From a virus (lineage: Duplodnaviria; Caudoviricetes), in IMG/VR virus record IMGVR_UViG_3300031772_007968, positions 1-55,946 of that record: DNA of 55,946 nt. The stretch is one strand, 5' to 3'. Made by a program: the position numbers and the translations under genes. Below, one piece after another: positions 2,202-50,993 of the stretch (position 1 is the first letter of the stretch; each line of letters begins with the position of its first letter). Under the pieces are notes generated by a model that was not told the DNA's origin, made no database searches, and saw nothing but the letters and a program-made list of their open reading frames with translations.

Positions 2202-2290
2202 TTGCTGTTTAATGACTTTCTTCTTGGGAAGGGGGCTAAAACCCTTTGCTGTTTAATGACTTTCTTCTTGGGAAGGGGGCTAAAACCCTT
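2202..2290. repeat. Perfect 44-bp tandem duplication upstream of the NHL/poly-Ser gene
   Basis: ttgctgtttaatgactttcttcttgggaagggggctaaaaccct at 2202-2245 and 2246-2289. Confidence 0.95.
2219..2290 (-). promoter_or_regulatory. Two copies of the AAGG-N19-GAAGA promoter-like motif
   Basis: Minus strand AAGG 2290-2287 with GAAGA 2267-2263; second copy 2246-2219; upstream of ATG 2192. Confidence 0.6.
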
Positions 2291-2352
2291 GATGCGGCAA
2301 TGCAAACATAAACGATGGGAGCGACTCCAGAGGAATGGCCATGGGACGGTTT

Positions 2353-4431
2353 TCAGTCGTACAACGGGATTTCTTGGTATCCCATAAGGCTGCTTCCCCT
2401 CGACATGTAGTCGTAGGTCTTGGGGAGATGCCTCATTATGACGGCTGGATCGAAGCCGCAACGGCTGATGTTGCCTATCCCGCCGTGATACGACGCGAGC
2501 ATCAGGGGAACCTGGTCGGTCTTCCATTTGTCCCTGTTGGCGTCGAGGAAAGTCTTGATGTCCACGAGGTACTGTTGGCCGAACATCCTGTTGACCTTGC
2601 TGTCAAACCGGTATTTATTCCATGGGTACTTGCCGGCAAAATGCTTTCGGTTCAGTTCGTTCCACGTGGGCTCCATCAGCTGCATGTCGCCCGCGGCGCC
2701 TTTTGAGCTGACTTGCTTCCTCGGGTCGTATTCCAATGACAGAACGGTATTGAGGAGCTCTTGTGTCACATTGGTTGACTTCGGTTCTCCTTCCGCCTTG
2801 GCTGGCTCATACCAGCGTCTCGGTCTCGACTCGACGCTCTTTGCCGGAGGCTTGGGGGCCAACTGGGCTGGCTTACCGAAAGACCTTTGCTTCGCCGCCT
2901 CCGTTTCCGCGGCTATCATCGTCTTGAGGTCGTCAAGGCTCTTGCGCATGATGAGGATATCGGCGTCCCTTTGCAGATCGAGGTTCTGTGCAACCTCGCT
3001 TCCGGACACCCCAAACGACCTCATGGCCGTCGGCAGCGTCATCATCCCCATCATCACGGAAAGGAACATCATGACGATCGCCTTCTTCTTGTCGGACCAG
3101 TCGGCCGTCTTGACAAGCGCGGCAATCGTTCCAGGGAACGATCCGAAGACATCGGTTCCGCTCATTTCTTCCTGCATTTCCGTCAGCATTTCCACGGCTC
3201 TCTCGTTGCTGCCCATCTCGTGCATTGCTTTGGCGAAGGCCAAGAAACGTTCGTCTGCGGATCCTTCCAGACCATGCGATTCGATTACCGGGAAGATAAC
3301 ATCATAAGCTGGCACAGAAAAGTCCAAATTTCCGGTAAAGGCCATTATACTGTCTGACTTCCACGACACTGGATTGCGTATGAAGTCATCAGCCATAAGA
3401 TCGAAGACCTGCTTGGAGCCAGTTGAGGCAAGGGCAAGTCTGAGCTTGGAGGCGGCCGATGGGTGGGACAGGGGATCCTCCATCAGCTTCCTGTAGAGCT
3501 TGACCCTTTCCATTTCGGAGAGGGACGGGTTTTCAGCCATACCAACGACGGCGTGTTCAAGAATGGAGGCGGCATCCTCTGTAAGGATGTCTTCCGAACA
3601 CGACAGGATCGCCTGAATCGCCTCAATGTTGGTGAAGCTTCCCATCGTAGCCTTCATGGAGAGGAGTTTGTTCCTGACATAGCTCGGTGCCGGCTGGGTT
3701 TGGCTCTCTGGAAGGCCACGTCCAAAGACGGCGGTTGGATTGTAGGCTATGGCTACAAGGGAGTCGGGATGATATTTCGTGGATTCCAAGAGCGCAGGTA
3801 TCGGGTTGGATCTCCATCCGTTCTTCATGGCGGCCTTACCGATTACGATGCCGCTGTTGTTGTTGTTCCAGACCATGCCGTAGGTCCCCTCCAATTCCTT
3901 CATTTGTGCCAAAAACATGCGGAAAATCCCAGTACCCTCAGCTCCTCGCCACCGCTCCGGCAGCAGACCGTATTGCTGTGCTATCGCGTCAACAACGGGA
4001 AGGGGAGTTCCGTTGGTCATGAACATATAGGCCGCCATCCCCGCCGAATCGTCTGAAAGGGCTATAGCCTGCAGTGCGGACTCGTCGGAATGGTCGCAGC
4101 TTCCGGTTCGGTCACAATGACTCAGTATCTCCTTCAGCAGCGCCAGGAGAGCACCTCGGTCAAGGTTGGACATATTCTGCCTGATTAGCTTCAATGAGGC
4201 CTTTGTGAGTTCCGGAACGTCGGCTACGGATTGTTCTCGGTACAGGTTGATGAACAGCTTCAGAGCCTCCCTCGGCGGCCAAGAATACGAAGACACGTGG
4301 CCAACAACGTCCCTTGTGACAGATGGGGAGTTCCTCGCCATCTCCACAAGCTGGCTTGGGGTTTTGCCTGCGAATCTGCTTGAAAGCACCGTGATTTTCA
4401 TAGACAATGAACCGGAAATGAGAACCGCCAC
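2353..4431 (-). CDS. Large protein with C-terminal lytic transglycosylase (SLT) domain, probably virion-associated
   Basis: SLT motifs LSLEY...SSKGAAGDMQLMEPTW...MLASYHGGIGN; internal hydrophobic helix AIVMMFLSVMMGMM; start may be ATG 4401. Confidence 0.8.
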   Translation of the reverse strand: MAVLISGSLSMKITVLSSRFAGKTPSQLVEMARNSPSVTRDVVGHVSSYSWPPREALKLFINLYREQSVADVPELTKASLKLIRQNMSNLDRGALLALLKEILSHCDRTGSCDHSDESALQAIALSDDSAGMAAYMFMTNGTPLPVVDAIAQQYGLLPERWRGAEGTGIFRMFLAQMKELEGTYGMVWNNNNSGIVIGKAAMKNGWRSNPIPALLESTKYHPDSLVAIAYNPTAVFGRGLPESQTQPAPSYVRNKLLSMKATMGSFTNIEAIQAILSCSEDILTEDAASILEHAVVGMAENPSLSEMERVKLYRKLMEDPLSHPSAASKLRLALASTGSKQVFDLMADDFIRNPVSWKSDSIMAFTGNLDFSVPAYDVIFPVIESHGLEGSADERFLAFAKAMHEMGSNERAVEMLTEMQEEMSGTDVFGSFPGTIAALVKTADWSDKKKAIVMMFLSVMMGMMTLPTAMRSFGVSGSEVAQNLDLQRDADILIMRKSLDDLKTMIAAETEAAKQRSFGKPAQLAPKPPAKSVESRPRRWYEPAKAEGEPKSTNVTQELLNTVLSLEYDPRKQVSSKGAAGDMQLMEPTWNELNRKHFAGKYPWNKYRFDSKVNRMFGQQYLVDIKTFLDANRDKWKTDQVPLMLASYHGGIGNISRCGFDPAVIMRHLPKTYDYMSRGSSLMGYQEIPLYD

Positions 4432-4518
4432 TGGATATTCTTTCCTTCACAGCACGCCTTATTCCTCCGAAGTGACCCCCAGCCATGCAAGTCCGGTGCG
4501 GTTTAACCCGACAGGCTG

Positions 4519-6270: not shown

Positions 6271-6298
6271 AAGGGATTTGGGGTATAATACGCGAAGA
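6271..6298 (+). promoter_or_regulatory. AAGG-N19-GAAGA motif with overlapping TATAAT (6284-6289)
   Basis: Read directly, upstream of ATG 6324. Confidence 0.55.
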
Positions 6299-6323
6299 AT
6301 CAAGAAGCGGAGCTTTACTGACT

Positions 6324-7669: not shown

Positions 7670-8536
7670 ATGAAAAAGCTTTTCAAACTCCCGATCTCGG
7701 AGGCACTGCCCACGTTCGTCAGGGATCTTGACGACGGTGTTGTGGCCATAGCATATTCCAAGGAGACCGGCGACCTCCTGTCGGCCAATTTCGCCGACAG
7801 GTCAGTCAGGTTCTGCCTCAAGGACGACAGGATTCTCTTTAGGGTTCCCAGACCGGGGAAGCCTAACGGGTTGTGCGTGTCGGCGGACGGGTTCTCGGCC
7901 ATCGTCAGGGATGACTTGGGCAGGGTCGCTTGGGAAGTCGGCATCGTCACGACCGTTGTCAGGCCGCTTGCCGGCAAGAGGGGCGTTGACGCCTTTTCCG
8001 GCAGGTACAAGCAGGATGACGTTCCGGTTGACAGGATGAACGGGATATGCCAGATCCCCGGTGCCGTTCTTGTAACGGCCGACGACTCGCATTGCCTGTT
8101 CGCGGTGTGCGAAGACAGTGCGGTCAGGCTTGTCGGAGGGAACGGAACAAGGGGATTTTCCATAGCCCCATCCCTCCAGACATCCATGTTGGATTCCCCA
8201 GGCGGAGTGTGCGTTATGTCAAACAAGCTCCTTTGCGTATGCGATTCGGGCAACGCCGCGATCCGCGTCGTCAACCCGTCGGGGATGGGGCATGTCCGCG
8301 TCTTCGGCAATCCCATGCAGAAATCGAAATCTGACGGCGACGCCGCTACGGCCAGGATGGTCAGGCCAGAGGGCATATGTGCCATAGACGGCAAGGCGGC
8401 TTTTATAGACTGCGGGAACAGCATCCGCCTTCTTGACCCCAACGCCCAACTCTTACGGACGCTTTATGAGTCAAAAGGCAGGATCGGATCGGTGGCCTGC
8501 TCTCAGAACGAGATATATTTCACGGAGTCCGCATGA
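7670..8536 (+). CDS. Degenerate NHL/beta-propeller protein
   Basis: PNGLCVS, LDSPGGVCV...VCDSGNAAIRVV, RPEGICA...FIDCGNSIR; ATGA overlap with the terminase. Confidence 0.65.
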   Translation: MKKLFKLPISEALPTFVRDLDDGVVAIAYSKETGDLLSANFADRSVRFCLKDDRILFRVPRPGKPNGLCVSADGFSAIVRDDLGRVAWEVGIVTTVVRPLAGKRGVDAFSGRYKQDDVPVDRMNGICQIPGAVLVTADDSHCLFAVCEDSAVRLVGGNGTRGFSIAPSLQTSMLDSPGGVCVMSNKLLCVCDSGNAAIRVVNPSGMGHVRVFGNPMQKSKSDGDAATARMVRPEGICAIDGKAAFIDCGNSIRLLDPNAQLLRTLYESKGRIGSVACSQNEIYFTESA

Positions 8537-10278
8537 AGACCGGCAAACGACCGCAGAAAAACAAGACGTTGTCGCCCAAGGGTACGATCCGCGACGCCAT
8601 AGCCGAACTGAAGGTGTCGCACGGGCTTGTTGAGCAGGCGTCGTCGTCCGACGACATCGTGGACATCGTCAAGTTCTGCGAACGTCCCGACCTGCTGAAC
8701 CTTCCTGCCAACAACCTGAACCTGTTCATATCGCAACGGGTGGTTCTAAAGTGTCTGTATTTGGGGTCAAGGGGCAACGAGGATCTTCAACTCACCGACG
8801 AGGAGGTGCAGTGGCTAAAAGACAAGAAACAGGACAACGTCCTCAAGATGCTTCATGATCGGTCGAAGGGCGGCGTGAGAAGGAGGGTGTCTGAGCTGAC
8901 GCTGGTTCTCGGGCGGAGAGCCAGCAAGACCGTGATAGCCAGCATCATTTCGGCGTACGAGGTCTACAAGCTGCTCAAGGTCGGCAAAGGCGACCCGTAC
9001 AATTTTTACGGCATAGCCTACGACGAGGAAATCGCCATCTTGAACGTGGCGACGTCCCGCAAACAGGCCGGAAGGTTGTTCGCTCAGATCAAGGCCAGGC
9101 TCAGGAACAGCCCATTCTTCCGAGAGAAGATAGCCAAGGTTACTTCCGACGAAATCAGGCTCTATACTGACATCGACTTGAGGAAGCTGAAGGAGTCCGA
9201 AGACACCGTGCCCGTCGAGGGATCGGTTGTGATTGTGTGCGGACACTCCAATCCTGACTCCCTGCGCGGTTACACCGTGATATGCCTCATCTTCGACGAG
9301 CTTGCGTTCTACGACGAGTCCGAGAAGATCTCCGGAACAGACTTCTATGAGGCTCTGGCACCGTCGGTGCACGATTTCGCATCGCGCGGCGACGGCCTGA
9401 TCGTGGAGATATCGACCCCCGGCCCGAAGACGGGGATATTCTACAAGCTTTGGAAGAACAGCTTCGAGGTCGACGGGATGATGTCGTTCAAGATGGCGAC
9501 ATGGGACTTCAACCCGAACAAGCCGTATGACGACCCAGAACTCACAAAGTTCAGGAAGTTGGATCCCGACGGGTTTGATGTCGAGTTCGGAGCCGAATGG
9601 CCAGAGGGGGGCGTGTACGGCATCTATTTCCCGGAGGAGCTCCTGGCCAAGACGTTGAAGATTGATCTGGCTCCTGAAACCGAACCTGTCTTCGGATGCG
9701 AATACTATATGCACGTCGACCCAGGCCTGTCGGCAGACAGGTACTGCGTCGCCATAGTTAGGAAAACGGTATACCACGACTCTGGTGGAAACCTGTCACC
9801 GAGGGTGATTCTCGCCATGACCAAGGCATATGATCCCGAGAGCCAGGGCGTTGGCCTTAACTATGAGAAGATTGAAGCCGACCTCCTCGACATGTGCCGA
9901 AAGTTCAATCCCATCCTTGTAACCTTCGACCAGTGGAACTCGATTGGGAGCCTTCAGATGCTCCAGAGGAACGGCTTCAACACAAGGCAGACGACCTTCA
10001 ACCGAGGCTACAAGAACAGGATATACCAGAACCTGAAGGATCTCATGGCCAAGCCAGAGCTGGGCCTGTGGCTCTATGACGACCAGCTGTTGATGACGGA
10101 GCTCAGGAACCTGAAATACCGGCCTACGGCCAGGGGGATGAGCATCGGAGCCGACAAGAGGGGTGACTGCCCTACCGACGACATGGCAGACTGCCTCGCC
10201 GGGGCGGCATTCATGGCCTCCGGCCACCATCACGCTAGGCTCCCTGAGGTCCTGACCGTCTATACCGGGATGCGATAA
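8533..10278 (+). CDS. terL: Terminase large subunit
   Basis: Walker A LGRRASKT, Walker B LIFDELA, motif III EISTP, RNase H-like MHVDPG, VTFDQWNS and DDMADCLA. Confidence 0.92.
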   Translation: MKTGKRPQKNKTLSPKGTIRDAIAELKVSHGLVEQASSSDDIVDIVKFCERPDLLNLPANNLNLFISQRVVLKCLYLGSRGNEDLQLTDEEVQWLKDKKQDNVLKMLHDRSKGGVRRRVSELTLVLGRRASKTVIASIISAYEVYKLLKVGKGDPYNFYGIAYDEEIAILNVATSRKQAGRLFAQIKARLRNSPFFREKIAKVTSDEIRLYTDIDLRKLKESEDTVPVEGSVVIVCGHSNPDSLRGYTVICLIFDELAFYDESEKISGTDFYEALAPSVHDFASRGDGLIVEISTPGPKTGIFYKLWKNSFEVDGMMSFKMATWDFNPNKPYDDPELTKFRKLDPDGFDVEFGAEWPEGGVYGIYFPEELLAKTLKIDLAPETEPVFGCEYYMHVDPGLSADRYCVAIVRKTVYHDSGGNLSPRVILAMTKAYDPESQGVGLNYEKIEADLLDMCRKFNPILVTFDQWNSIGSLQMLQRNGFNTRQTTFNRGYKNRIYQNLKDLMAKPELGLWLYDDQLLMTELRNLKYRPTARGMSIGADKRGDCPTDDMADCLAGAAFMASGHHHARLPEVLTVYTGMR

Positions 10279-10299: not shown

Positions 10300-10327
10300 A
10301 AGGGAAAGACGACAGGATCGCAGAACA
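10300..10327 (+). promoter_or_regulatory. AAGG-N19-GAACA motif
   Basis: Intergenic, upstream of 10382. Confidence 0.6.
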
Positions 10328-10381
10328 AATAACACAAGTAACCATGGTTTAATAACCCCCGTTAGGGGATGATCCGGAGAT

Positions 10382-12536: not shown

Positions 12537-12590
12537 GTTGTAGGGACGCCTCTTGTGACTGGAGTATGTGCCGATCCGTTGGGGTCTGGC

Positions 12591-12618
12591 AAGGGTTTCG
12601 CTCAGTTCTCTGAGAAAA
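12591..12618 (+). promoter_or_regulatory. AAGG-N19-GAAAA motif
   Basis: Upstream of the refined start at 12652. Confidence 0.5.
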
Positions 12619-12651
12619 ACAATTCAGGAAATTGTGATCGGAGAACGACAC

Positions 12652-13701
12652 TTGAATTACAAAACAGCATGGACTTTTACTCCGTTCGAGGGCAAGGATC
12701 TGAACCCCACCACCGAAAGGTCCAGAGCCGTCCCCGCATTCGGCGGAACTGACCTCATCCAGGATATCATCAATTTCAACAGGGGGAAAACGGTTGACGT
12801 CCACAGCCGCGGCCAGTGGGCGGAAGACAGGCAGACCCACAACAAGGACGTTGATAAGGCATATCGCGAGGAAGGCGACGAATATACCATCACAAAAAGG
12901 CTTCAGGAAAAGCGCAACCGCGACTCCACAAACGATGCGAAACCAACCGAGGAATTGTGGGTGGCCCATATGCCCGGCGGCAAGGATATGGTCTTCCCGA
13001 GCCACGAGGTCGCCATAGAGGAATTGCGAAAGAGGAAACTGCCCGTCAGGATACTCGAAAGGCGATTCGCACAGGTTATTTCAGGAACCGACATCATCGG
13101 AGCGGCTCTGCAGTCGTGCGTCATGATCAGGTCGTCGGTCGGCGAGTCCACCGAAATCGGAGCCGGCTTCTGCCTCGGTGGAGGAATATTTGTGACATGC
13201 GCACATGTCGTCCAAAGGTACGACAAGTTCAACATGCCCAAGGGAAGCCCCGAAAACCGCGGAGCCGTCAGCGTCGGTCGTGAGAACCAAGCGGAACCGG
13301 CCGAGATCGTCCATATCGATTACCAGAAGGACATCGCGATACTGAAGTCGGCAATGGCCTCTGAGGCCTTGTACCTCGGGGACAGTTCGCAGCTCCAGCA
13401 GGGGGACAGGGTTTTCGCCGTGGGCAGCCCAAGGGGGTTCGAGAACAACGTTTCGGACGGTATAATCAGCGGGTTGGACAGGTCGGTGTTCTGGTACGAG
13501 GGCGCTCCGAGGTATATCTTCACGGACGCTCAGGTTCTTCCCGGCAATTCCGGAGGGCCGCTCCTGACGTACAACGACGGTAAGGTGGTTGGAATGGTGT
13601 CCATGATAGTCGGTTCCGACAAGGGACTGTACGGGCTCAACGCCGCCATCCCCGCCAGCTACATAGCGAAAATCTTGAAGGAACTTGGGCTTTCGAAGTA
13701 G
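12652..13701 (+). CDS. Trypsin-like (S1C/HtrA-type, PDZ-less) serine protease with N-terminal extension
   Basis: Catalytic triad motifs TCAHVV, DIAIL, PGNSGGP; in-frame TTG 12652 with GGAG RBS. Confidence 0.9.
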   Translation: MNYKTAWTFTPFEGKDLNPTTERSRAVPAFGGTDLIQDIINFNRGKTVDVHSRGQWAEDRQTHNKDVDKAYREEGDEYTITKRLQEKRNRDSTNDAKPTEELWVAHMPGGKDMVFPSHEVAIEELRKRKLPVRILERRFAQVISGTDIIGAALQSCVMIRSSVGESTEIGAGFCLGGGIFVTCAHVVQRYDKFNMPKGSPENRGAVSVGRENQAEPAEIVHIDYQKDIAILKSAMASEALYLGDSSQLQQGDRVFAVGSPRGFENNVSDGIISGLDRSVFWYEGAPRYIFTDAQVLPGNSGGPLLTYNDGKVVGMVSMIVGSDKGLYGLNAAIPASYIAKILKELGLSK

Positions 13702-13705
13702 AATG
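13678..13705 (+). promoter_or_regulatory. AAGG-N19-GAATG motif
   Basis: Overlaps the protease stop codon; upstream of 13756. Confidence 0.6.
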
Positions 13706-13755
13706 AGTGTTTTAAGCCCCCGTGCGGGGGACGATCCACAATAAGGAGTTACAAA

Positions 13756-14656: not shown

Positions 14657-14684
14657 AAGGGAAAAACCGTTCCAACGGGGAATA
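14657..14684 (+). promoter_or_regulatory. AAGG-N19-GAATA motif, possibly leaderless
   Basis: ATG 14692 lies 7 nt after the motif with no SD. Confidence 0.7.
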
Positions 14685-14691
14685 ACACTTT

Positions 14692-19373: not shown

Positions 19374-20078
19374 ATGCCAGTAATCAGGGCAGAGGTTGCA
19401 AGGCGGCATGATGAGCTTTCAGCGGGCCTGATGTGTCGAAAACGCCTGTCGAAGGACGCCGGGATGCTTTTCATCTTCGGATCAGAGAAGCCGCTGTCGT
19501 TCTGGATGGCCAACACTTATATCCCACTCCAGATAGCGTTCATCCGTGGAGACGGAACCGTGGGGCAGATAGAGAGTATGGTGCCGCTCAGCACCAAAGC
19601 CGTACGGTCATCGGAGTCATACAAGTACGCCCTTGAGGTCAATGACGGATGGTTCGAGAAGAACAACGTCAAGGTGGGGGCGAAGGTTGAGGCCCCGTTC
19701 CTTGGCATGGAGCAAGGCGCCCCAGTGGGTCAACAGCCCCAACAGCCCCAACAGCCCCAGATGACCATAGAGCAGTCTTTCAAGGACATCCTCAAGGCCG
19801 TTGACGAAACAGGGAGCAAAGTCATCGTCGAATATTCTCCGAAGGAGGGGACCGACCCGATCATCAGGGCGGTCGAGACCCCCATAGTCTTCGGCGACAC
19901 CGCCGACGGCGACACTGACGGGCTTGCCACCGTATGGGACTCTGGAAAGGCCAGATATACCAGTTTCATCATAGACAACATTCTTTCAATCAAGGATCTC
20001 AACGGGAACCCCATCACGTCCTCCGAGCAACTGAGGACGGCGGCGAATGCAGGAAAAGGCCGTCTTGTGACCGAATGA
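19374..20078 (+). CDS. DUF192 domain fused to a WYL-like domain
   Basis: GLMCR...GMLFIF...FWMANTYIPLQIAFI...ALEVNDGWF; C-terminal VEYS...RAVET...VWD...YTSFIIDNI. Confidence 0.8.
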   Translation: MPVIRAEVARRHDELSAGLMCRKRLSKDAGMLFIFGSEKPLSFWMANTYIPLQIAFIRGDGTVGQIESMVPLSTKAVRSSESYKYALEVNDGWFEKNNVKVGAKVEAPFLGMEQGAPVGQQPQQPQQPQMTIEQSFKDILKAVDETGSKVIVEYSPKEGTDPIIRAVETPIVFGDTADGDTDGLATVWDSGKARYTSFIIDNILSIKDLNGNPITSSEQLRTAANAGKGRLVTE

Positions 20079-21376: not shown

Positions 21377-21404
21377 AAGGGAATGGGGACGGAGGTTGGG
21401 AATA
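21377..21404 (+). promoter_or_regulatory. AAGG-N19-GAATA motif
   Basis: Intergenic, upstream of 21479. Confidence 0.7.
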
Positions 21405-21478
21405 ACAATGAAACGGGCCCGCAGGGGCGGGCGAAAAATGCCGGCAAAAAGCCGGTGCAATCAATAAGGAGAATGCAA

Positions 21479-31526: not shown

Positions 31527-31554
31527 AAGGGAAATCCACTGGGGATGGAGAATT
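31527..31554 (+). promoter_or_regulatory. AAGG-N19-GAATT motif
   Basis: Upstream of 31599. Confidence 0.65.
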
Positions 31555-31598
31555 GTGTCACTAGTGGATCCGATTAGTCGTTTTGGAGGCTCAAGATT

Positions 31599-33413: not shown

Positions 33414-36400
33414 ATGATCGAGAAATATGCCATATGCAGTTTTGTTGACATCGAGAGGATCGAGGGTGGATCCGCCGATCAGCTCATGAGCATGGTGAAG
33501 ACGGCCGCCAACAAGATCAGCATACACGAACACACTCCGTACAAGGATGTGATCGAGGCTGAAATCAAAAAGCATGCGACAGCTCTGTTTTTCAAGGCCA
33601 AGGCCATCGTCGCCGACGAGATGAACACCAACGGCGACTATTTCTCCAAGGAAGAGCTCAAGCGTGCCGCTCAGACGTTCGTCGGGGTTCCGTTCTATAC
33701 GAACCACAACAACAAGGACATCGAGCAGGCTCGCGGGAAGATAATCTTTTCCGAGTGGAACGAGAAGGACAACGCCATCTACGTCATCGCCTTCGTCGAC
33801 AGGGAAGCCTACCCCCACGTGTGCAGGGGCATCGAACAGGACTACATGACCGGCGTCAGCATGGGATGTTCGGTTGAATATTCCGTCTGCAGCATCTGCG
33901 GCCAAAAGGCCGAGAAGGTCGAGGAATACTGCTCCCACATCAAGAATCTCAAGGGCAGGAAGTTCTCCGGAACCGCCAAGGACGTGAGGACGGGGGTCGT
34001 CCGCCAGTTCAAGAACGCCCTCGTCTATGAGGACAACTACGGCGTCAGGTTCATCGAACTGAGCGGAGTCGGCGACCCAGCATGCAGGAGCTGCCACATC
34101 CAGGGCGTATTCGACAACCACGAAGCTCTTCTTCACAAGGCCGCATCCGTCGAGAACAACATCTACATGTATCGAGAGTCGTCCATGGCCAAGGAAGCGA
34201 GCCAGGAGGAGATCCAGCAGCTCCAACAGGCTCTTGCGACGCTTGAACAGATATCAATCGGCCTCATCAAGAACCGACAGAACGTCGAGGTGGAGTTCGC
34301 CAGCGACCTTGTGGCTATCCTTTCCGACCTCCAGAAGTTCACGGACGAACTGGTTGCGGCGGGATACGGACAACTTCAGGGCGCTCCAGCCGTTCCAGGA
34401 ACCGAACCCGTTCCTGGTATGGACTCTGGTGCGACAGCCCTCCCTCCCCCCGCCGCCGGGATGCCGAGTGTGGCTCCCGCAGTCGAATTTGGGTTGCCGT
34501 CTGCCACCCCAATGCCTGCCGTTGAGTCCGCTCCTGCCCCGGCTGCTGCCGTCGGAAGGGTTTCCGGAGCCCCAGGCAGGCCTTCCGTGAACAGGCCGAC
34601 CATGCCCACCCCTCCCGCCAAACCCATGGCTGCTGCGGCGGTCGTCAATTTGATGGCGAAAATAGCTGAAAAGGCCTCCGAAGTGTTTTCCCTTATTTCA
34701 CACTCGGATGCAGGAAAAACCGAAGAAATCAAGGAACAGGAGAGTTCAATGAAGGAAAACGAGAAAATTTCAGCGAATATCACTGAGCATAAGACCAGTT
34801 CAATCACAAACGGAGGATCCGCAATGTCTGATGTGAAAACCGCGGCAAGGACGGAAGCGCCGGAAGTTGTCAATGAGAAGCAGCTCGACACCGGCATCAA
34901 GTATCATCCGAGGACGGATTCGGCCCCGGATCAGGTGACCCAGGCGCAGCTCGAAGCGAAGCGCTCGGGCCAGGAACCCGAGGTTCTGAGCGAGAAGCAG
35001 CTTGATGCGAAGCGCACGGACGGGACTCCGACCGTCGTGACCCAGAAGCAGCTCGATCCCGCCCGCAAGGACGACGAGAAGGATCAGGTGACCCAGGCGC
35101 AGCTCGCGGTCCAGAGGACCGACAAGGAGCTGCAGTCCGTCACCGAGAAGCAGCTTGACGACAAGCCCGCCGACGTGTGGTCCAGGTCGGCCTTTGCGAG
35201 GAAGGCTGTGAAGACCGCCGCCGAGCATCTGGCCTCCGTGGTCAGCGTGCTGGCGAAGGTGGCTGTGAAATGCTCCGCGACTCCCGCCCAGATCAGGACG
35301 GCAGCCGGCGAAATGGTGTCCGGAACCAAGCAGAAGTCTGCCTTCCTCGACGCCATCACCTCGACCGACGCCAAGCCCGAGGCCACCGACACGCTCGACG
35401 TGGCGGCCAGGGCGAAGTATTGGGGCGGAAGGGGCATCACCATCGCATCGGCGACGGCGGCCGACATCATGGACACGGTCCGTTCCGGCCTGAAGTCCCT
35501 TGTCGCATCCGATGAGAAGATCCACCCTGAGACGGTGGCGGACGTTCTCGAAGTCGTCGCCGAAGAGGCGGACAGCGAGAAGGAAATTTCTGCGGCGGTT
35601 GACGCCATGATGGATGCCAAGCAGGCGGACTCCAAGCCAGCCGCATCCGCGAAGGACGACATCCGCAAGGCCCTGAAGACCGACAAGTCCCCGGCGGCGA
35701 AGCCGGAGGCCGTCCAGGCACGGGCTGACGAGCGGAAGAAGATCCTCGCGGCGGTTAGCAAGCCGACCCACAAGATCGAAGCCTCGATGAGCGAAATCGG
35801 AATCACAAGGGAGATGCTCAAGTCCGACGAGAAGGCGGCTCGGAAGCTCATCGTCGGTTTCGCGAAGGGCGCGATGGCCGGACAGAACAAGAAGGTCGCC
35901 GCAGTCACCAACGTGACGATTGACGGCGACGTCATCCAGATCGCGGTCTCGACGGACGAGAGTGCGGCCGAGGTGGAGGTCCCTTTGGCGGGTGAGGGCA
36001 TAGGCCCCGAAGCCGCCCCGAAGGAAGGCGACGTGACGGGCGAGAACCTTGACGCCCTTACGATGCCGCCCCCGGCGGCAGCCGCCCCTGCCCCTGCGGC
36101 CCCCGGACTCGGACTGCCTCCCGCTGAGGCTCCGCTGCCCGTTGCCGGTGCGAAGGTTGAATTGAAGAAGGAAGCCCAGGTCGGCGGAGGCCAGCCCGGA
36201 ACGGCTTCGAACATGCCTTCGGTAGGCGGACCTGGCGATGCAGGAACAGCGGTTCCAGAGCCGCCCCCCGCGATGGACGCCGGACTTGAGTCCTTCACGA
36301 AGGACGAGGCCAAGGGCGAGCTGCCCGAAGCCGGCGAACAGATGATGCCCGGAGCGATCTGCCCGTTCTGCCGCTCGACCGACACGACTGTCGGCCAGGA

Positions 36401-38567: not shown

Positions 38568-38608
38568 AACCCCCGAACAGAATCGCATCACTTTTTCGAC
38601 ACAAAAGG

Positions 38609-38636: not shown

Positions 38637-38811
38637 GGTAGGTTGTGAAGCCGCCTGTGGCGGCAGACCGAACGACGCGAAGTATCACCGACGGGGAACT
38701 AGGATGGCTCAAGGGACGGCTCAAACGACATTCGAACACTACGGCTGAATGCGGACGCTGGCGGATCCCGAAGCGGTTTTGAGCGAACGAACGAACAACA
38801 AGGAGAAAATC

Positions 38812-40322: not shown

Positions 40323-40345
40323 TCCGCCGTTGTTCGATTGAAAAT

Positions 40346-40386: not shown

Positions 40387-40392
40387 AATCTA

Positions 40393-40435
40393 TTGACAAT
40401 AAAAAAGAAGGTTAGTTATATTATGGTGTAGAATT
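40393..40435 (+). promoter_or_regulatory. Overlapping sigma70-like (TTGACA 40393, TATATT 40417) and AAGG-N19-GAATT (40408-40435) promoters
   Basis: Read directly, upstream of the endonuclease gene. Confidence 0.6.
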
Positions 40436-40456
40436 AATAAATCAAGGAGATTGTTT

Positions 40457-41437: not shown

Positions 41438-41443
41438 CCGCAA

Positions 41444-41471
41444 AAGGGTTCGGCCGCCCCGTTTGGGAATA
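41444..41471 (+). promoter_or_regulatory. AAGG-N19-GAATA motif
   Basis: Upstream of 41498. Confidence 0.7.
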
Positions 41472-41497
41472 AATAGGGAGCTTGGAGGCCGGACACC

Positions 41498-42586: not shown

Positions 42587-42596
42587 GGGACATACA

Positions 42597-42896: not shown

Positions 42897-42908
42897 GGAT
42901 GGTGCGGG

Positions 42909-43322
42909 ATGAGGATATTCAAGCTTTCGGCAATGGACTGCGGCGGCTTCTGGCCGGCGGGCAAGGGCAAGCACCTGGACACACAGATGTTCCCAGAGTG
43001 CAAGAACTGGCCGTCGTACCAGCACAAGGGCAAGAAGAAGACCAAGAAGGCAGACGCCGACGAAGGCCTTCGGACAGAGGCGGCCAAGCTCAGATGCTCC
43101 AACTGCGGTCACCCCGTTCTCAGGAGGCACCGTTCCGGCCGCGAGGGCCTGTATGAGTGCACCGGCTGCGGCCTTGCCGTCAGCACCAACGCCATCCCCT
43201 ATGAGGGGTCGTGGGCCCACAGCGAGGAGGTCAGGAAGCGCGAGGGCAAGCCCATCCCAGGCGCCGAACTGCGCAAGCTCCCCTCGGAGGGGAACATGGG
43301 ATACCCCCCTTCGGCCAAATGA
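42909..43322 (+). CDS. Zn-ribbon protein
   Basis: CSNCG...CTGCG; MRIFKL start. Confidence 0.65.
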   Translation: MRIFKLSAMDCGGFWPAGKGKHLDTQMFPECKNWPSYQHKGKKKTKKADADEGLRTEAAKLRCSNCGHPVLRRHRSGREGLYECTGCGLAVSTNAIPYEGSWAHSEEVRKREGKPIPGAELRKLPSEGNMGYPPSAK

Positions 43323-43383
43323 CCTGCCGCCCCGACAATAACCCGATTTTGCACAATAAACCTCCCAACTTTAGTGTGGAAAT

Positions 43384-44022
43384 ATGGCTTACGTTGAAGA
43401 CAGCCTCGACATGCCGCTGAGGGACGTCCTTGCGGCCATGCAGGAGCGCATCCAGAAGCGGACGACTTATTTCGGCGTCAAGGCTATGAAGAGCCCGATT
43501 GACCACTGGGTCTACCGCGAGCTGATCTGCGAGGCTCGCCCCGACTTCATCGTTGAGATAGGCAACGCATGCGGAGGGAGCACGCTTTCGCTGGCTCACA
43601 CCTGCGACCTGCTGGGGCACGGAAGGGTCGTGGCGGTTGACTTGTCGCACGCCGGAATTCACGAGAGCGTCAGGAGCCACCCCAGGATCAGCTTCGTCGA
43701 AGGCGACGCCTGCTCAAGATTCCCGGAGGTCATGGGGATCGTTGACCCAGGATCCAAGGTTCTTGTCATAGACGACAGCTCGCACACCTTTGCCAACACC
43801 CTGAAGGTCCTGTGGACGTATTCGCCGCTGCTCAAGGTGGGCGACTATTTCATCGTCGAGGACGGCATCTGCCGGCACGGCCTTGATGTCGGGCCGAAAC
43901 CTGGGCCCTACGAGGCCGTAGAGGCGTTTGTGAGGGAGAACCCTGACTATGCCATTGACAGGGATCGGGAGTCGTTTCTCATAACTTGGAACCCGAAGGG
44001 CTATCTGAGGCGGGTGTTCTGA
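43384..44022 (+). CDS. CmcI-family (cephalosporin hydroxylase/rhamnosyl O-methyltransferase-like) SAM methyltransferase
   Basis: KSPID.WVYRELI...PDFIVEIG.A.GGS, VLVIDDSSH, YFIVEDG, TWNPKGYL. Confidence 0.88.
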   Translation: MAYVEDSLDMPLRDVLAAMQERIQKRTTYFGVKAMKSPIDHWVYRELICEARPDFIVEIGNACGGSTLSLAHTCDLLGHGRVVAVDLSHAGIHESVRSHPRISFVEGDACSRFPEVMGIVDPGSKVLVIDDSSHTFANTLKVLWTYSPLLKVGDYFIVEDGICRHGLDVGPKPGPYEAVEAFVRENPDYAIDRDRESFLITWNPKGYLRRVF

Positions 44023-44170
44023 CAGCCTCTTCGACTTCGACTATCGCCACCCTCAGCGGCCTGTACCACGGGCAGTCCCTGTTGTTGGGATGGTGGCTGT
44101 CGTCCACGTCCCTGACGCAGTCAGGACATCTGCCAATGATGCTGTTGACGTACTCTATGGCTGTCACCAT
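43979..44170 (-). CDS. Small Cys/His protein (63 aa)
   Basis: GGAGG RBS; CPDC...HHPNN.DCPWY. Confidence 0.5.
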   Translation of the reverse strand: MVTAIEYVNSIIGRCPDCVRDVDDSHHPNNRDCPWYRPLRVAIVEVEEAVRTPASDSPSGSKL

Positions 44171-44238
44171 GTTCCATCCTCCCCGTCTTATCATTCGACA
44201 GGAACGGTTCCTTACCCTCCCGAATGTATAATGACCCA

Positions 44239-44289
44239 ATGGAACCCCGTAATGCCATCTTGGGCGGCCGATGGGAGGATGTCCTACCA
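44239..44289 (+). pseudogene. Stranded 5' remnant of the DNA methyltransferase
   Basis: MEPRNAILGGRWEDVLP versus MENVIINAKWEDALP (45357); preceded by TATAAT 44227-44232. Confidence 0.65.
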
Positions 44290-44305
44290 ATCCCGGCTCC
44301 ATACA

Positions 44306-44333
44306 GCTCTGTGTGGCTCTGTGTGGCTCTGTG
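44306..44333. repeat. 10-bp tandem repeat (gctctgtgtg, 2.8 copies)
   Basis: Read directly; at the left boundary of the AT-rich insert. Confidence 0.85.
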
Positions 44334-44475
44334 GTGGCAGTCTAGTCAAGACGGTGTCTTGGGCATTGGAAAACTTTAGGTTGTAGACTACCGAACGAAT
44401 ACGTCAGCAATCGGCTATCCAACCAAGAATGGGATATGACGGGCAACAAGGGGGCAATTCATTTTGATCACAAGC

Positions 44476-45114
44476 TTACTGGAAAAGATCAGAATGAGTA
44501 TTGGTAGATTTCTTAAAGGCCGTCCATTCATCTTCTGTCATATCCGCCTTGGCTCTGTTTTCGAACCAAGAGACAAATCTCAAGTTTTCAAGGCAAAAGG
44601 TTCCTCCCTTGCTCCGCGGATGAATGTGGTCTATTGATGGGTAGAGCCATTTGTTTTTGCCGCTGTTTATCCACAATGAATATAACTTTACAAACGAAGG
44701 ATCATTGTAGAATTTGTCTACAAACACCCATCTGTTGATGCTTTGAGATCTGACGGCCTGAATGTGTCTGGTTGTTACTTTGGTCAAGAATATGAGTCGG
44801 TCAAAGTCGGTATATTTAGTGAAATCAATGTCGGTCTTGAGTTTGATGATCATTTGTTCTTGTCTGAAGGCTAATGACATTTTTTTGCCCTTGCTCCACG
44901 GGATCAATCCTTTATGAGCAATGGATATCTTATTGCGAGTCGCTTGACTCATGGGTCTTCTTATGCGGGCGGCCCCGTCTATAGGAATACCATTTTTGAT
45001 AAGGACTCTTTTTATGCTGTGGTGATTGGTTCCAAAATGACTAGCTATCCGACGCAGTGTCCATTTTCCAACATCATAAAGTTCAACGATTTGCTGTTCT
45101 AATGTGATGTTCAT
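44476..45114 (-). mobile_element. HTH-NUMOD3-HNH homing endonuclease
   Basis: TLRRIASHFG; MSQATRNKISIAHKG..PWSKGKKMS; SIDHIHPRSKGG...NLRFVSWFENRAK; AT-rich. Confidence 0.85.
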
Positions 45115-45131
45115 TTTCCCTCAATCTTGGT

Positions 45132-45263
45132 TTAGATAGATGGTTTTCGCTCTTTGTCCCAATATGCCGAATGACATTTTGGACAAAGTACAATTTCACG
45201 CTTTCTAGGAACCCATTTATGGCCGCACCGTTTGCAGTTAACAAATCTAATATTGAATCTCAT
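45132..45263 (-). CDS. 43-aa Zn-ribbon microprotein (not in ORF track)
   Basis: MRFNIRFVNCKRCGHKWVPRKREIVLCPKCHSAYWDKERKPSI; TATAAT 7 nt upstream. Confidence 0.75.
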   Translation of the reverse strand: MRFNIRFVNCKRCGHKWVPRKREIVLCPKCHSAYWDKERKPSI

Positions 45264-45356
45264 ATTCCTTATTATACTCAGTGATTATGATCATATCCTC
45301 TTTTCTAAAAATCTTTTGATACATATTAGCCAGTATCGCTATAATGGTGGGGTAAT

Positions 45357-46157
45357 ATGGAAAACGTAATAATTAACGCAAAATGGGAAGATGCGTTACC
45401 CCACTTACCATCTGGCTCCGTTGATTTGGTATGTATGGATCCTCCTTATGGAGTGACCCCAGCCACATGGGATGTCAGGCCGGATTGGAATCTATTGATG
45501 TCCGAATTGGGCAGAGTGTGCGGTGATACTGGCCAATGCTGGTGTTTTGTCCGGATGCCATGGGCTATGGATGTGTATTTGGCCTCAATATCAAATGGAT
45601 GGGTTTGGGGCCAAGAAATAATCTGGGAGAAACAGAACGCCGGCGGCTGCACCGTTGGTACCTTCAGGAAGGTCCACGAGAACATATGGAACTTCAAGCG
45701 GAAAAACGCCAGGACGTTCAATCTGGAGGCCATACGAGTCCCGAAGACCACCCACGGCGACAAGTCCGTCAAAAGGAGGAAGGACTCGACGACGCAGTTC
45801 CTAGGGGCGAACAACAGCTCATATTCCGACGACGGGATGCGGCTTCCGCGCAGCGTCGTGCGCTGCAGGAACATACACAGATCCGAGGAATCGCTCGGAC
45901 ATCCGACGCAGAAGCCGCTTGACGTGGTGATCCCATTCGTCCTCTATTCTTCGAACCCCGGGGACCTCGTGGTTGACCCGTTCTGCGGGACAGGAACATC
46001 CCTTGTAGCAGCCAAGATGTATGCCAGAAGGTGGATCGGCGTCGAGAACGACCCGCAATGGCTCAAGGTGGCCCAGGAGAGGCTGAATTCGACGGCCGTT
46101 TTGGATCACAAGCCGACGGTCGGGACACAAGGAGAAAGCGACCTTTTTGCCGAATGA
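45357..46157 (+). CDS. Beta-class N4/N6 DNA methyltransferase
   Basis: DPPY, EIIWEK, HPTQKP, VVDPFCGTGT. Confidence 0.92.
   Translation: MENVIINAKWEDALPHLPSGSVDLVCMDPPYGVTPATWDVRPDWNLLMSELGRVCGDTGQCWCFVRMPWAMDVYLASISNGWVWGQEIIWEKQNAGGCTVGTFRKVHENIWNFKRKNARTFNLEAIRVPKTTHGDKSVKRRKDSTTQFLGANNSSYSDDGMRLPRSVVRCRNIHRSEESLGHPTQKPLDVVIPFVLYSSNPGDLVVDPFCGTGTSLVAAKMYARRWIGVENDPQWLKVAQERLNSTAVLDHKPTVGTQGESDLFAE
46129..46156 (+). promoter_or_regulatory. AAGG-N19-GAATG motif
   Basis: At the methyltransferase 3' end, upstream of 46193. Confidence 0.6.
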
Positions 46158-46192
46158 TAGTTTGCGGCATGTGAACCGCAGGAGAAACGTTT

Positions 46193-46465
46193 ATGAAGAA
46201 AATGATCAAGGAAGACGGCAAGGTGGTTCTGACGATGTCGAAGGCCGAATGGGAAAAGATCGGAAAGGACAAGGGATGGGGCATGGAGGCTCAGGAGCTT
46301 GAGAAGAGCGCACAGGCGTCTCCGAAGGCCGAACAGGCTCCCGAAGCCCCGGAAGCTTCGCCTGCGGCAATGGTGGTCTGCAAGGTGTGCAGCTACGCCA
46401 ACAGGCCCGAGGCGTTCGGAGCAGGATCGTGTCCGAAATGCGGATCCACGTTCCTTGACAGGTAA
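46193..46465 (+). CDS. Small Zn-ribbon protein with SKAEWEKIG motif
   Basis: AGGAG RBS; CKVC...CPKCG. Confidence 0.7.
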   Translation: MKKMIKEDGKVVLTMSKAEWEKIGKDKGWGMEAQELEKSAQASPKAEQAPEAPEASPAAMVVCKVCSYANRPEAFGAGSCPKCGSTFLDR

Positions 46466-48435: not shown

Positions 48436-49854
48436 ATGGCACCCATGAAGTCCGCATATGAACTGGCCTGGGAAGGCTCCGCTTTGGCCCGGAAGGGCGA
48501 ACGCAACGAGCCTGCCGAGGAGCCCGCAAGCAGATTCGTCGACGACCTGCCCCGCAACTTGTGCGGCTCAAGGAAGGAGATGGACGAGGCGATCAAGGAA
48601 AAGAAGCTTGACGAACTGAAGCAGAAACAGGCTCGCTTGGCCGAACGCGCAATGCTCGACATGGCCAACCATCCGAAGCCTAGGCCTCCCGCTAGGAGCA
48701 AGCTGGAGGTCACCTACGCCGGCCCGTTCCTGTCCAACAGCGGGTTTTCAAGGATGAACAGGGAAATCGCGTTCCGTCTCAGGACGAGGGGCGTCAGGGT
48801 AAAGGTCGAGACAACTGGCGAACAGGAACAGGTGTCCGCCTCCGACGCCAAGATGATCGGAGCCATGACGCGCGAAACGACGTCCGGCAAGGAGCCGAAG
48901 ATCTTCGGCATGACGATCCCGTCGCTAATGGCTCACGGCGGCAGGAAGATACTTTACACCATGGTCGAGAGCTCAAACGCCGTGCACCCCGAATATGCCG
49001 AAAGGGTCAACCTTGGCAGCGAGGCGTGGGTCCCCAGCCAGTACCTCAAGGACATCATGGAACGGAGCGGCGTCAACGTGCCCATCAGCGTCATGCCGCT
49101 GGGCGTCGACCAGAACACGTTCCGTGCCGACACGACTCCGATGCAGCTCCCGCCGTATGTGAAGTCGTTCCGGTTCCTCAGCGTCTTCTGGTGGGGCCTC
49201 AGGAAGGGCTACGACATCCTGCTGAAGGCCTACCTAAGGGAGTTCTCTGCGGATGACGACGTCTCCCTCATCATATCGTCGAAGCTTAACAAGGGGAGGG
49301 CTCCCGAGCCCGACGACATCGTTGAGAAAATCAGGCTGTATGTTCGGGCGTCGAAAAACCCCAACCCGCCTCACGTCATGCTTCAGAACGAGATGCTCAC
49401 CGACGGGCAGCTTGCGTCGCTCTACACGGCCTGCTCGGCCTTCGTCCTCATGTCCAGAGGCGAGGGGTTCGGCCTGCCCATCCTTGAGGCCGCCGCATGC
49501 GGCCTTCCGGTAATCACCACGAACTGCACAGCCCAGTCGTCCTACCTTTCGGCGGACGAGGCGTTCCTCATCGATCCGGAGGGCTACGAGACGAGCGTGG
49601 CGACGGGAGGATCGGCGTCCGACATGGCCAAAAGCTGCAGATGGTACGAGAACCAGCAGTTCCCGATTTTCAGGGACAAAACGATAACCGAACTCGGAAG
49701 GGTCATGAGATCGATCTACGAGGGCAAGTCGCAGGCGACGGCGAAGGCGGCTAAACTCCGCCGAAAGGTCGTTGAGACCATGACTTGGGACGACACGGTT
49801 GACAGGATATTGGAAAGGCTTTCGGAACTTGCTGAAAAGGAGGAACGGAAATGA
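48436..49854 (+). CDS. GT4-family glycosyltransferase
   Basis: WVPSQY, PLGVD, RKGYDILLKAY, SRGEGFGLPILEAAACGLPVITT; TATAAT (48423-48428) 7 nt upstream. Confidence 0.92.
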   Translation: MAPMKSAYELAWEGSALARKGERNEPAEEPASRFVDDLPRNLCGSRKEMDEAIKEKKLDELKQKQARLAERAMLDMANHPKPRPPARSKLEVTYAGPFLSNSGFSRMNREIAFRLRTRGVRVKVETTGEQEQVSASDAKMIGAMTRETTSGKEPKIFGMTIPSLMAHGGRKILYTMVESSNAVHPEYAERVNLGSEAWVPSQYLKDIMERSGVNVPISVMPLGVDQNTFRADTTPMQLPPYVKSFRFLSVFWWGLRKGYDILLKAYLREFSADDDVSLIISSKLNKGRAPEPDDIVEKIRLYVRASKNPNPPHVMLQNEMLTDGQLASLYTACSAFVLMSRGEGFGLPILEAAACGLPVITTNCTAQSSYLSADEAFLIDPEGYETSVATGGSASDMAKSCRWYENQQFPIFRDKTITELGRVMRSIYEGKSQATAKAAKLRRKVVETMTWDDTVDRILERLSELAEKEERK

Positions 49855-50918
49855 ACTGCATGGTGATGTGCGAAATTACGCTGAGCAAGAAGCTGGAGAA
49901 GTTCGTCGAGCCAGGGGAACCGGTATCCATACACATCGACTCGATCCGCGGCAACAGGGGAAGGGGCATGATGAGGATAGTCCTTCCCGAGGGCATCGGC
50001 CCAGCGGCACTTAATTCCGTCGGCGAAACCAGCCTCATATTCAAGGTGGTTTCGGCCGAGGAGGACACTCCCAGCATCGGGTCTGGCCATCCAAACATCA
50101 GCATGTTTAGCGGGTCGGCCAACGTTGACGGAAAATCGGCCCTTGAGAAGAAGATGTTGGCTCATGCGGATGCAGACTCCAGCCTTGGTGATCCTCATCC
50201 GATGAGCAAGGTTCAGCCGCAGCCTCTTCCTCCGGAAGTAAGGCAGCCGAGCCCTCAGGCGCGCGAGCAGCCTGTTGTCGGCGGAATTCCACCAGTCCAA
50301 AGGCCGCAGCCCCAACCCCAGAGGCGGCCGGAGGCGATTGACGACGCAAAAGCCGTGATGTCATACGACGACCTCATGGCGGCGGTCGCCGAGGTTAGGG
50401 ACATTGACAGGGAAGTCGTCGTTCCCAAGGCTGGGATGAGCAAGGAAGCCCGCGAGGCGGCAATATCCGCCTTCAAGAACATCCCAAGGATGTCCACACA
50501 CGTCTATGTCAAGAACCTGCTCAAGAGCTGTCTGGTCATACAGGACATGCCCCTGAGCGAGCAGTCATCCGTCTGCTTCCAGCCGGGCGAGGCGTGCGAC
50601 CTATCTCGCTTCCCAGCCAAGCTGGTCAGGGACAGCAACGACCTGAGATGGTGCATCGAAACCGGCAAGATCGGCTTCTCAACCAGAGCTGAATATGTGA
50701 AGTATTACGAGTCAATGTCCGGCCAGCACGACGACGGGAGGGGCCTCAAGGTCTTCGGGTCGCGGCGCGAAGCCGAAAGGGGAATGGGTATGGGCGACGC
50801 CCCGTCCGTCGAGGACGACGGGAAGACGATAGACGTCGAGGACAGGGACGGGGAGGTGCCTTTCGGGGACGACAGGGGTATGGAAAGCCTCCTGAAGACC
50901 ATGCCGACTCAGAAGTGA
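49851..50918 (+). CDS. Hypothetical protein
   Basis: ATGA overlap; AGGAGG RBS. Confidence 0.75.
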   Translation: MNCMVMCEITLSKKLEKFVEPGEPVSIHIDSIRGNRGRGMMRIVLPEGIGPAALNSVGETSLIFKVVSAEEDTPSIGSGHPNISMFSGSANVDGKSALEKKMLAHADADSSLGDPHPMSKVQPQPLPPEVRQPSPQAREQPVVGGIPPVQRPQPQPQRRPEAIDDAKAVMSYDDLMAAVAEVRDIDREVVVPKAGMSKEAREAAISAFKNIPRMSTHVYVKNLLKSCLVIQDMPLSEQSSVCFQPGEACDLSRFPAKLVRDSNDLRWCIETGKIGFSTRAEYVKYYESMSGQHDDGRGLKVFGSRREAERGMGMGDAPSVEDDGKTIDVEDRDGEVPFGDDRGMESLLKTMPTQK

Positions 50919-50965
50919 TTGCCGCCTAGGGCATAAGACGGGGTCGTCTAACCTGAAAGTTGAAA

Positions 50966-50993
50966 AAGGTTTGACGGCCCCTTTTCGTGAATA
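50966..50993 (+). promoter_or_regulatory. AAGG-N19-GAATA motif
   Basis: Upstream of 51052. Confidence 0.7.

Follow-up and report, generated by a model that had tools for sequence, protein, structure and literature searches.

Phage-encoded sigma factors such as SPO1 gp28 and gp34 and T4 gp55 redirect the host core RNA polymerase to private promoters of later genes; SPO1 middle promoters combine AGGAGA with a T-rich -10, and the T4 late promoter is a single TATAAATA box. Among cellular factors, sigmaH (Spo0H/SigH) of the Bacillota acts mainly at the transition to stationary phase and its Bacillus subtilis consensus is RnAGGAwWW-N11-12-RnnGAATww, with purines upstream of AGG. Here we describe a motif, AAGG-N19-GAAT, that recurs ahead of virion genes in the IMG/VR virus record IMGVR_UViG_3300031772_007968, analysed over its whole linear length of 55,946 bp (the window). 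The motif marks a genuine promoter-like regulon, whose conserved core comprises ~10-15 sites on virion genes, and we consider it probable that these sites are late-gene promoters read by a phage-encoded sigmaH-family sigma factor together with the host core RNA polymerase. As such, the finding is a new instance of a known strategy.

The available text of a survey of phage sigma factors names gp28, gp34 and gp55, clusters SPO1 gp28 with sigD, sigH and sigI, and describes phage homologues of host sporulation sigmas (SigF/G/E/K-like), which it reports to act on sporulation genes of the host and to be dispensable for lytic growth (Schwartz et al., 10.1101/2021.11.12.468384). Those sigmas resemble the candidate considered here in being homologues of host alternative sigma factors carried on phage genomes, and differ from it in that the present one would have a putative cognate promoter set on the phage's own structural genes. 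No sigmaH-type phage promoter was seen in the available text of the survey. From the SPO1 and T4 systems the present one differs in its promoter sequences and in its sigma, which in relatives and on a metagenomic contig described below is a SigH-family homologue. The accessible portion of a Sporomusa study gives SigH promoters as a -35 AGGA and a -10 GAAT separated by 17-18 nt, with similar promoters in B. subtilis and C. difficile (PMC12456013); no SigH promoter consensus was found in PMC3364868. Sigma factors are encoded by group 2 jumbo phages and absent from group 3, according to a passage that also mentions Bacillus phage G without stating its group (PMC7824862). Our literature search found no paper on the promoters of phage-G-like phages and no description of gene-expression timing in phage-G-like megaphages (450-550 kb).

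The original prediction had listed 19 coordinates for an AAGG-N19-GAA(T)A pattern of invariant spacing, nearly all of them just upstream of gene starts. The pattern is present at all 19, and both the spacing and the placement are borne out by counts. The strict form, AAGG-N19-GAAT, occurs 12 times on the plus strand and never on the minus strand, versus 0-4 times (mean 2.1) at the 19 other spacings between 10 and 29 that served as controls (Poisson P = 2.3e-6, or 4.6e-5 corrected for 20 spacings). With one more base, AAGG-N19-GAATA gives 7 matches versus 0-2 at other spacings (Poisson P = 2.6e-6). The loose form, AAGG-N19-GAA, has 39 matches on both strands (37 plus, 2 minus) compared with 9.8 +/- 3.3 in shuffled sequence, and none of 100 shuffles reaches 39. 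This contrast is inflated because the plus strand consists of coding sequence rich in purines: other spacings that keep the codon phase (k = 16, 22, 25 and 28, k being the number of nt between the boxes) give 24-28 matches, and therefore the loose form alone adds only ~10-12 real sites.

Among the 12 strict sites, nine lie between genes or at the edge of one, in a window with 2.8 kb of intergenic DNA under our gene model; one (46129) occupies the final 29 nt of the preceding gene and two (14881 and 34752) lie deep in open reading frames (ORFs). Nine also fall wholly within 24 upstream zones that together make up 4,351 nt, or 7.8% of the window (P = 1.8e-8). When all pairs of the type 4-mer/N12-23/4-mer were scanned across these zones, AAGG-N19-GAAT ranked first with 9 zones, every other dyad reached at most 5, and the runners-up were mostly this motif read with a shift. 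A second scan, which used no annotation and looked for spacing-specific dyads, placed AAGG-N20-AATA first (8 versus 0.6 expected), with AAGG-N19-GAAT at 12 versus 2.7. Two unbiased scans thus have this dyad on top.

To define the boxes we used a profile of 23 sites picked by the AAGG pattern, 10 from the window and 13 from G001, the closest complete relative. The refined consensus is R-A-AGG-[G/A/T][A/T]-N17-GAAT-A-A. A purine precedes AAGG in 22 of the 23 sites, the base after AAGG is G, A or T and never C, and the next is A or T. GAAT is followed by A (16 sites) or T (5) and then by A (18), which makes GAATAA the -10 hexamer. To judge from the TAGG and CAGG variants, AGG would be the -35 core. 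The spacer, GC-rich in the window and AT-rich in G001, has no conserved base; a position weight matrix from 10 sites overfits the spacer columns and was used for ranking only.

Written as AGGn-N18-GAAT, the motif has the published sigmaH promoter form, as far as the accessible portion of the Sporomusa study describes it (AGGA/GAAT, 17-18 nt; PMC12456013), and the claimed sigmaH-likeness of the sites is upheld. AGG is found in 23 of 23 profile sites, which had been selected by AAGG, and in eight of eight aligned orthologous sites. GAAT stands at the single enriched spacing (12 versus a mean of 2.1) and is extended by A-A. The 18-nt form lies within the sigmaH range, and the 17-nt form (k = 18) is not enriched (4 versus ~2). 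Compared with the Bacillota promoters, those described here are located in a phage before virion genes, have an invariant spacing and a putative sigmaH dependence, carry G, A or T rather than A as fourth -35 base, and have a -10 extended to GAATAA.

The window encodes a capsid protein 56% identical to gp27 of Bacillus phage G (Donellivirus gee; 497.5-kb genome), and its CheckV completeness of 12% indicates a fragment of a very large phage. Capsid proteins of relatives are encoded on 80 viral contigs, five of which are complete genomes of 461-548 kb. The closest of these, G001 (476 kb, 39% GC), has a capsid protein 78% identical to that of the window (~57% GC), which is syntenic with the G001 minus strand from 462 kb down to 407 kb. 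In G001, AAGG-N19-GAATA occurs 17 times on the coding strand and not at all on the other, versus 1-7 times at other spacings (P = 4e-8); the pattern read backwards gives 2-3 matches. About 13 of the G001 sites are clearly intergenic, eight of them in the structural block at 394-451 kb, and the genes behind G001 sites include those for a tail tube protein, an NHL-repeat protein and a head protease. Close relatives have a capsid-operon site, ~770-830 nt ahead of the capsid gene. Its boxes are exact in L002, L003, L004, L006 and L010 and carry one mismatch in L001 (GAGG for AAGG) and in L009, which is G001 (TAAT for GAAT). In an eight-phage alignment of this site, invariance is limited to AGG, AAT and a few A's, mean column identity is 62%, and the spacers have diverged. 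Across the 11 closest loci the AAGG-N19-GAAT dyad is enriched, with 9 zones versus 0.9 expected.

A search for a sigma70-family gene, put forward in the original prediction, gave a divided result: a PF04542 search found none in the window, and a SigH-like gene is present in all five complete relatives. These five genomes have 1-4 sigma-70 region 2 matches each, and the SigH-like protein of G001, used as query, has a single homologue in each (35-38% identity). The best NCBIfam matches of the relatives' proteins, and of the sigma encoded on contig L164, are to SigH, the top five rows all belonging to the SigH group (PRK08295 / TIGR02859). A profile of the SigH-like proteins (A2) has as best structure a 3mzy chain ('RNA polymerase sigma-H factor'; E = 6.4e-18), the next sigma, ECF sigma-E, following at 0.007, which places the proteins closer to SigH than to other sigma classes. 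A further 441 environmental proteins match at E <= 1e-5; the best 120 of the 441 are all at least 52% identical, and several of these 120 are named by their source as sporulation-specific or sigma-H factors. Phage family libraries match the SigH-like sigma weakly (phrog_351, 44 bits; phrog_1740, 29 bits).

The contig L164 (3.46 kb, 58.6% GC) came from a metagenome scan and is likely of the same lineage as the window phage. Its tetranucleotide correlation with the window is r = 0.88, compared with -0.08 to 0.64 for six other loci. It encodes, in order, a tube-like protein, a DnaX-type clamp loader and a SigH-like sigma, the order found in G001 at 166.8-163.3 kb. The L164 sigma is 38% identical to that of G001 overall, with a nearly identical region 2. 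Pieces of L164 occur at >=99% identity in runs X1-X3 and, once, at 95-99% in X4, and all four runs hold the window. A scan of viral contigs with the G001 sigma alone returned only itself, and an alignment-based scan of them returned no high-GC locus. As a separate observation, the SigH-like gene directly follows the clamp-loader gene both in L164 (1196-3191) and in G001 (165.3-163.3 kb); in T4, late transcription is linked to the sliding clamp.

Host core RNA polymerase carrying a sigmaH-family sigma, encoded elsewhere in a ~450-kb phage genome, would thus read a -35 box R-A-AGG-[G/A/T][A/T] and, across an unconserved spacer, a -10 hexamer GAATAA exactly 19 nt after AAGG. We assumed the usual geometry and took the seventh base after the hexamer as predicted start. 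Transcription beginning ~7 nt after the hexamer would produce one or two leaderless mRNAs (14692, perhaps 22249), and the other mRNAs would have leaders of 19-105 nt with Shine-Dalgarno (SD) sites; at the remaining strong sites the predicted leaders do span 19-105 nt and end in SD sequences. Terminators ahead of several sites would split the virion module into separate units. The genes downstream are head and virion genes, namely those for decoration, major capsid and protease proteins and large structural ORFs, and it is from this gene content only that we infer late timing. Transcription from the sites, its start points and the identity of the sigma are likewise deduced from sequence, and a phage-encoded SigH-like sigma is the most likely reader. 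A dedicated late promoter served by a phage-encoded or co-opted alternative sigma, as originally proposed, is thus supported by the form, placement and conservation of the sites, by their resemblance to sigmaH promoters and by the SigH-like gene in five of five complete relatives and on L164.

If this is correct, a phage has here put a borrowed sigmaH-class factor to work on its late genes and not to interference with its host. With the promoter defined and a candidate sigma to match, operons and true gene starts in largely uncharacterised genomes would be easier to annotate, the promoter model predicts leaderless genes, and the two would offer a compact, probably orthogonal sigma/promoter pair testable in Bacillus.

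Several observations weigh against a phage sigmaH-type regulon. The window, about one-eighth of the genome, contains no sigma gene, and L164 is linked to it only through composition, synteny with G001 and co-occurrence in window-holding runs. The SigH-like proteins score 69-112 bits, below the curated NCBIfam SigH cut-offs of 208-414, and the relatives' and L164 proteins are accordingly SigH-like and not equivalogs. G001 encodes four sigma-70-family ORFs, the SigH-like one and three others. About one-third of the listed sites are weak variants, positional one-mismatch matches in G001 are weak evidence against a background of roughly one such site every 1,050 nt, and the 40408 site overlaps an 11/12 sigma-70-type promoter. 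Among the sequencing runs that hold positions 38400-46400 there are none of RNA, all 16 being sediment DNA contigs. Moreover, the 40.8-kb structural region of phage G has no AAGG-N19-GAAT signal, and G002, G003 and G005 show no clear enrichment over whole genomes (9 versus 6, 10 versus 7 and 5 versus 4 for the control pattern).

The motif is restricted and not general to the phage-G-like clade. Phage G resembles the window phage in its jumbo genome, structural gene order, capsid protein and annotated sigma factor (gp3), and differs in lacking the signal; a tblastn search of it with the G001 SigH-like protein listed no match at E <= 1e-3. G004 shows a modest excess (10 versus 2 for the control pattern), and G006-G009, which have the closer sigma type, show small counts only (6 versus 1-4, 1 versus 0, 7 versus 2 and 2 versus 0-1). 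No equivalent motif came out of de novo dyad scans covering 65 more distant loci (327 zones) and subgroup pools, which yielded nothing beyond AT-rich noise and conserved SD-start strings. A spacing-20 signal in the pooled loci (72 versus 37-63) was rejected, as its matches proved on inspection to be coding. Divergence of promoter specificity along with sigma region 2 would explain how distant relatives keep the sigma gene without the motif. We offer, at a little under even chances, a wider reading in which a phage-G-like subclade uses its own sigmaH-family sigma, encoded beside the clamp loader, to read an invariant-spacing AGG/GAATAA promoter that switches on virion genes, including leaderless mRNAs, and in which specificity diverged with region 2 between subclades.

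It is unlikely that the host's own sigmaH has been co-opted to read the promoters, any SigH-like phage protein then having another role. Such an arrangement would tie virion production to the state of the host, where sigmaH is mainly a transition-phase factor, and would make the SigH-like gene of five out of five complete relatives redundant. The cultured relative, phage G, is recorded on a Bacillus host, the motif matches the cellular SigH form, and a SigH specificity reported to be much alike in Bacillus, Clostridium and Sporomusa might account for the motif's conservation in phages of 39% and 57% GC, but the single strict spacing contrasts with the 17-18 nt given in the accessible portion of the Sporomusa study (PMC12456013).

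We give just as little credence to a different phage factor, either another sigma-70-family protein (RpoD/RpoS-like, as in G001) or an activator working with the host polymerase. The four sigma-70-family ORFs of G001 provide candidates, and across G002-G005 a SigH-like gene can be present without the motif following it. To our knowledge, however, no other sigma family has AGG/GAAT boxes at such a spacing; RpoD-like and FliA-like proteins are expected to read other boxes, and neither sigma-70-type sites nor FliA-type GCCGATAA-like boxes are enriched. In particular, TTGACA-N16-18-TATAAT is not enriched in any third of the window (13 versus 7.7, 5 versus 5.1 and 8 versus 7.3), and GAATAA shares two of six bases with TATAAT. 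Two 11/12 sigma-70-type sites were noted, TTGACA-18-TATATT at 40393-40422 (LAGLIDADG gene) and TTGATA-18-TATAAT at 45316-45345, before the DNA methylase gene. A GCCAATAA/GCCGATAA box conserved ~45 nt before the decoration gene in close relatives (L001-L010), and not present in the window, suggested a sigma-28-type promoter; this was rejected because the box is not enriched genome-wide, GCC[AG]AT[AT] for the GCCGATAA -10 box occurring 10 times on the plus and 12 times on the minus strand of the window and 100 and 105 times in G001, with no strand or intergenic bias. A T4-type late promoter, with a single extended -10 box and no -35, was rejected since enrichment here requires two boxes at a fixed spacing. 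Promoters of sigmaI contain a CCCCC element; C-runs occur in four of ten window spacers but are absent from the 13 G001 sites, and this type was also discarded.

That the sites are no promoters but a by-product of composition or codon usage, a regulator binding site or an RNA-level signal is very improbable. In favour of this reading, coding periodicity accounts for most of the loose form, two exact matches are within ORFs, and the 16 runs holding 38400-46400 are DNA and none RNA. Against it, the sites are specific in spacing and strand and concentrated in intergenic DNA, their boxes are conserved across diverged spacers and are not palindromic, unlike a usual dimeric regulator site, and no Rfam family or tRNA was found to overlap them.

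Taken one by one, the listed sites comprise ~10 strong ones, 4-5 variants with support and a weak remainder. The sites are as follows.

13678..13706, plus strand: strong, AAGG-N19-GAATGA; overlaps the protease stop, predicted start 43 nt before an SD-led ATG at 13756
14657..14685, plus strand: strong, AAGG-N19-GAATAA; directly after a hairpin (14609-14645) with a T-rich tail
21377..21405, plus strand: strong, AAGG-N19-GAATAA
22214..22242, plus strand: strong, AAGG-N19-GAATAT; after a terminator (22141-22174), before the gene for a 1084-aa AAA-ATPase protein
31527..31555, plus strand: strong, AAGG-N19-GAATTG; 37 nt to ATG 31599 (SD GGAGG); G001 counterpart at 436177, AAGG-N19-GAAA
38609..38637, plus strand: strong, AAGG-N19-GAATAG; after a terminator (38532-38561), before the decoration (38749) and major capsid (39453) genes
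40408..40436, plus strand: strong, AAGG-N19-GAATTA; after a terminator (40346-40383), before the LAGLIDADG endonuclease gene
41444..41472, plus strand: strong, AAGG-N19-GAATAA; 19 nt to ATG 41498 (SD GGAGG)
46129..46157, plus strand: strong, AAGG-N19-GAATGA; final 29 nt of the methylase gene, 29 nt to ATG 46193 (SD AGGAG)
50966..50994, plus strand: strong, AAGG-N19-GAATAA; ~50 nt to ATG 51052; G001 counterpart at 408843, AAGG-N19-GAAA
25501..25529, plus strand: G001-supported variant, TAGG-N19-GAATAA; 41 nt to ATG 25577; identical pattern before the orthologue at G001 440886
12591..12619, plus strand: G001-supported variant, AAGG-N19-GAAAAA; head of the protease ORF; exact site before the orthologue at G001 450389
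2218..2290 (AAGG at 2290 and 2246), minus strand: G001-supported variant pair, AAGG-N19-GAAGAA; before the NHL-repeat gene (2192..3)
20050..20078, plus strand: possible variant, CAGG-N19-GAATGA; 38 nt to ATG 20123, without positional support from G001
10300..10328, plus strand: possible variant, AAGG-N19-GAACAA; between the terminase stop (10278) and ATG 10382, no G001 match
6271..6299, plus strand: possible variant, AAGG-N19-GAAGAA; after a stop at 6255, 18 nt to an SD-led in-frame ATG at 6324, ambiguous
38711..38739, plus strand: possible, weak variant, AAGG-N19-GAACAC; predicted start 3 nt before an SD-less ATG at 38749
34752..34780, plus strand: exact, within the 1696-aa protease-fusion ORF; 37 nt to GGAGG and an in-frame ATG at 34824
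14881, plus strand: exact, in coding sequence, not among the coordinates first listed

Four sites had been said to follow terminators or hairpins, and they do (14657, 22214, 38609 and 40408), a strong hairpin with a T-rich tail standing immediately before each. An ATG placed 7 nt after GAATA with no SD was likewise confirmed at both 14692 and 22249. At 14692, the start of a 1087-aa ORF, the A lies at the predicted +1 of the 14657 site, and there is no SD and no earlier in-frame start, making this mRNA a candidate leaderless transcript; the distance from hexamer to ATG is the same at G001 426545. The ATG at 22249 also falls on the predicted +1, of the 22214 site, with an alternative in-frame ATG at 22300 behind GGAG that leaves the assignment ambiguous. 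The gene after 21377 likely starts at ATG 21473-21485 behind AAGGAG rather than at the first ORF ATG, 21383, and the protease ORF likely has its true start at GTG 12634 or TTG 12652. Either promoter may serve at 40408, given the overlap with the sigma-70-type promoter.

Support from G001 for the variants at 25501, 12591 and 2246/2290 is modest. The minus-strand pair lies in a perfect 44-bp tandem repeat (2202-2290, 2.0 copies), so that the whole variant promoter is duplicated, and the G001 NHL-repeat orthologue has an exact counterpart at 273598. A CAGG site at G001 444333 was considered as positional orthologue of 20050 and rejected, because it abuts the start codon. The 34752 match may have arisen by chance or may mark an internal promoter that serves a nested product, and the 14881 site, being inside coding sequence, is probably due to chance. 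Independently of the motif, the in-frame SD and ATG at 34824 inside the protease-fusion ORF are retained in G001 (~430520) and suggest a nested shorter product, perhaps scaffold-like; lambda C/Nu3 is an example of a nested shorter scaffold product. Close relatives (L001-L010) also have an A(A/G)TTGGCA box ~15-20 nt after the capsid-operon -10, opening a ~230-nt leader, which is not found in the window.

Almost all genes of the window are on the plus strand. Those named above, and other landmarks, are the following.

2192..3, minus strand: NHL-repeat gene
8533-10278: large terminase
12568-13701: trypsin-like protease
28215-31475: portal with inserted endonuclease or intein region
33414-38504: 1696-aa protein with a prohead-protease domain
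ATG 38749, plus strand: decoration gene
39453-40322: major capsid protein
40451-41437: LAGLIDADG endonuclease
45357-46157: DNA methylase
48436-49854: glycosyltransferase

The portal gene encodes 1086 aa, of which residues 67-342 match portal proteins; LAGLIDADG and intein-like matches come next, and a DUF559/MTES_1575 endonuclease domain lies at the C terminus. The best segment against the G001 portal aligns only residues 1-370, and the gene looks like one with an intein or endonuclease insertion. The LAGLIDADG homing endonuclease gene (40346-41437 region) is itself an insertion, with its own terminator, between the capsid gene and the next gene, and a tblastn search with it against G001 gave no match. 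Positions 44000-46200 form a low-GC island (47% versus 57%), within which a NUMOD3/endonuclease VII-like gene is encoded on the minus strand at 44476-45114 and the sigma-70-type site at 45316-45345 also lies. The strongest spacing-specific dyads of G001 are tRNA-like GGTT...CCAA pairs and a repeat family, GTAC...TGTG (~25-32 copies). Finally, a PAS-domain protein of 329 aa is encoded in the window at 51821-52810.

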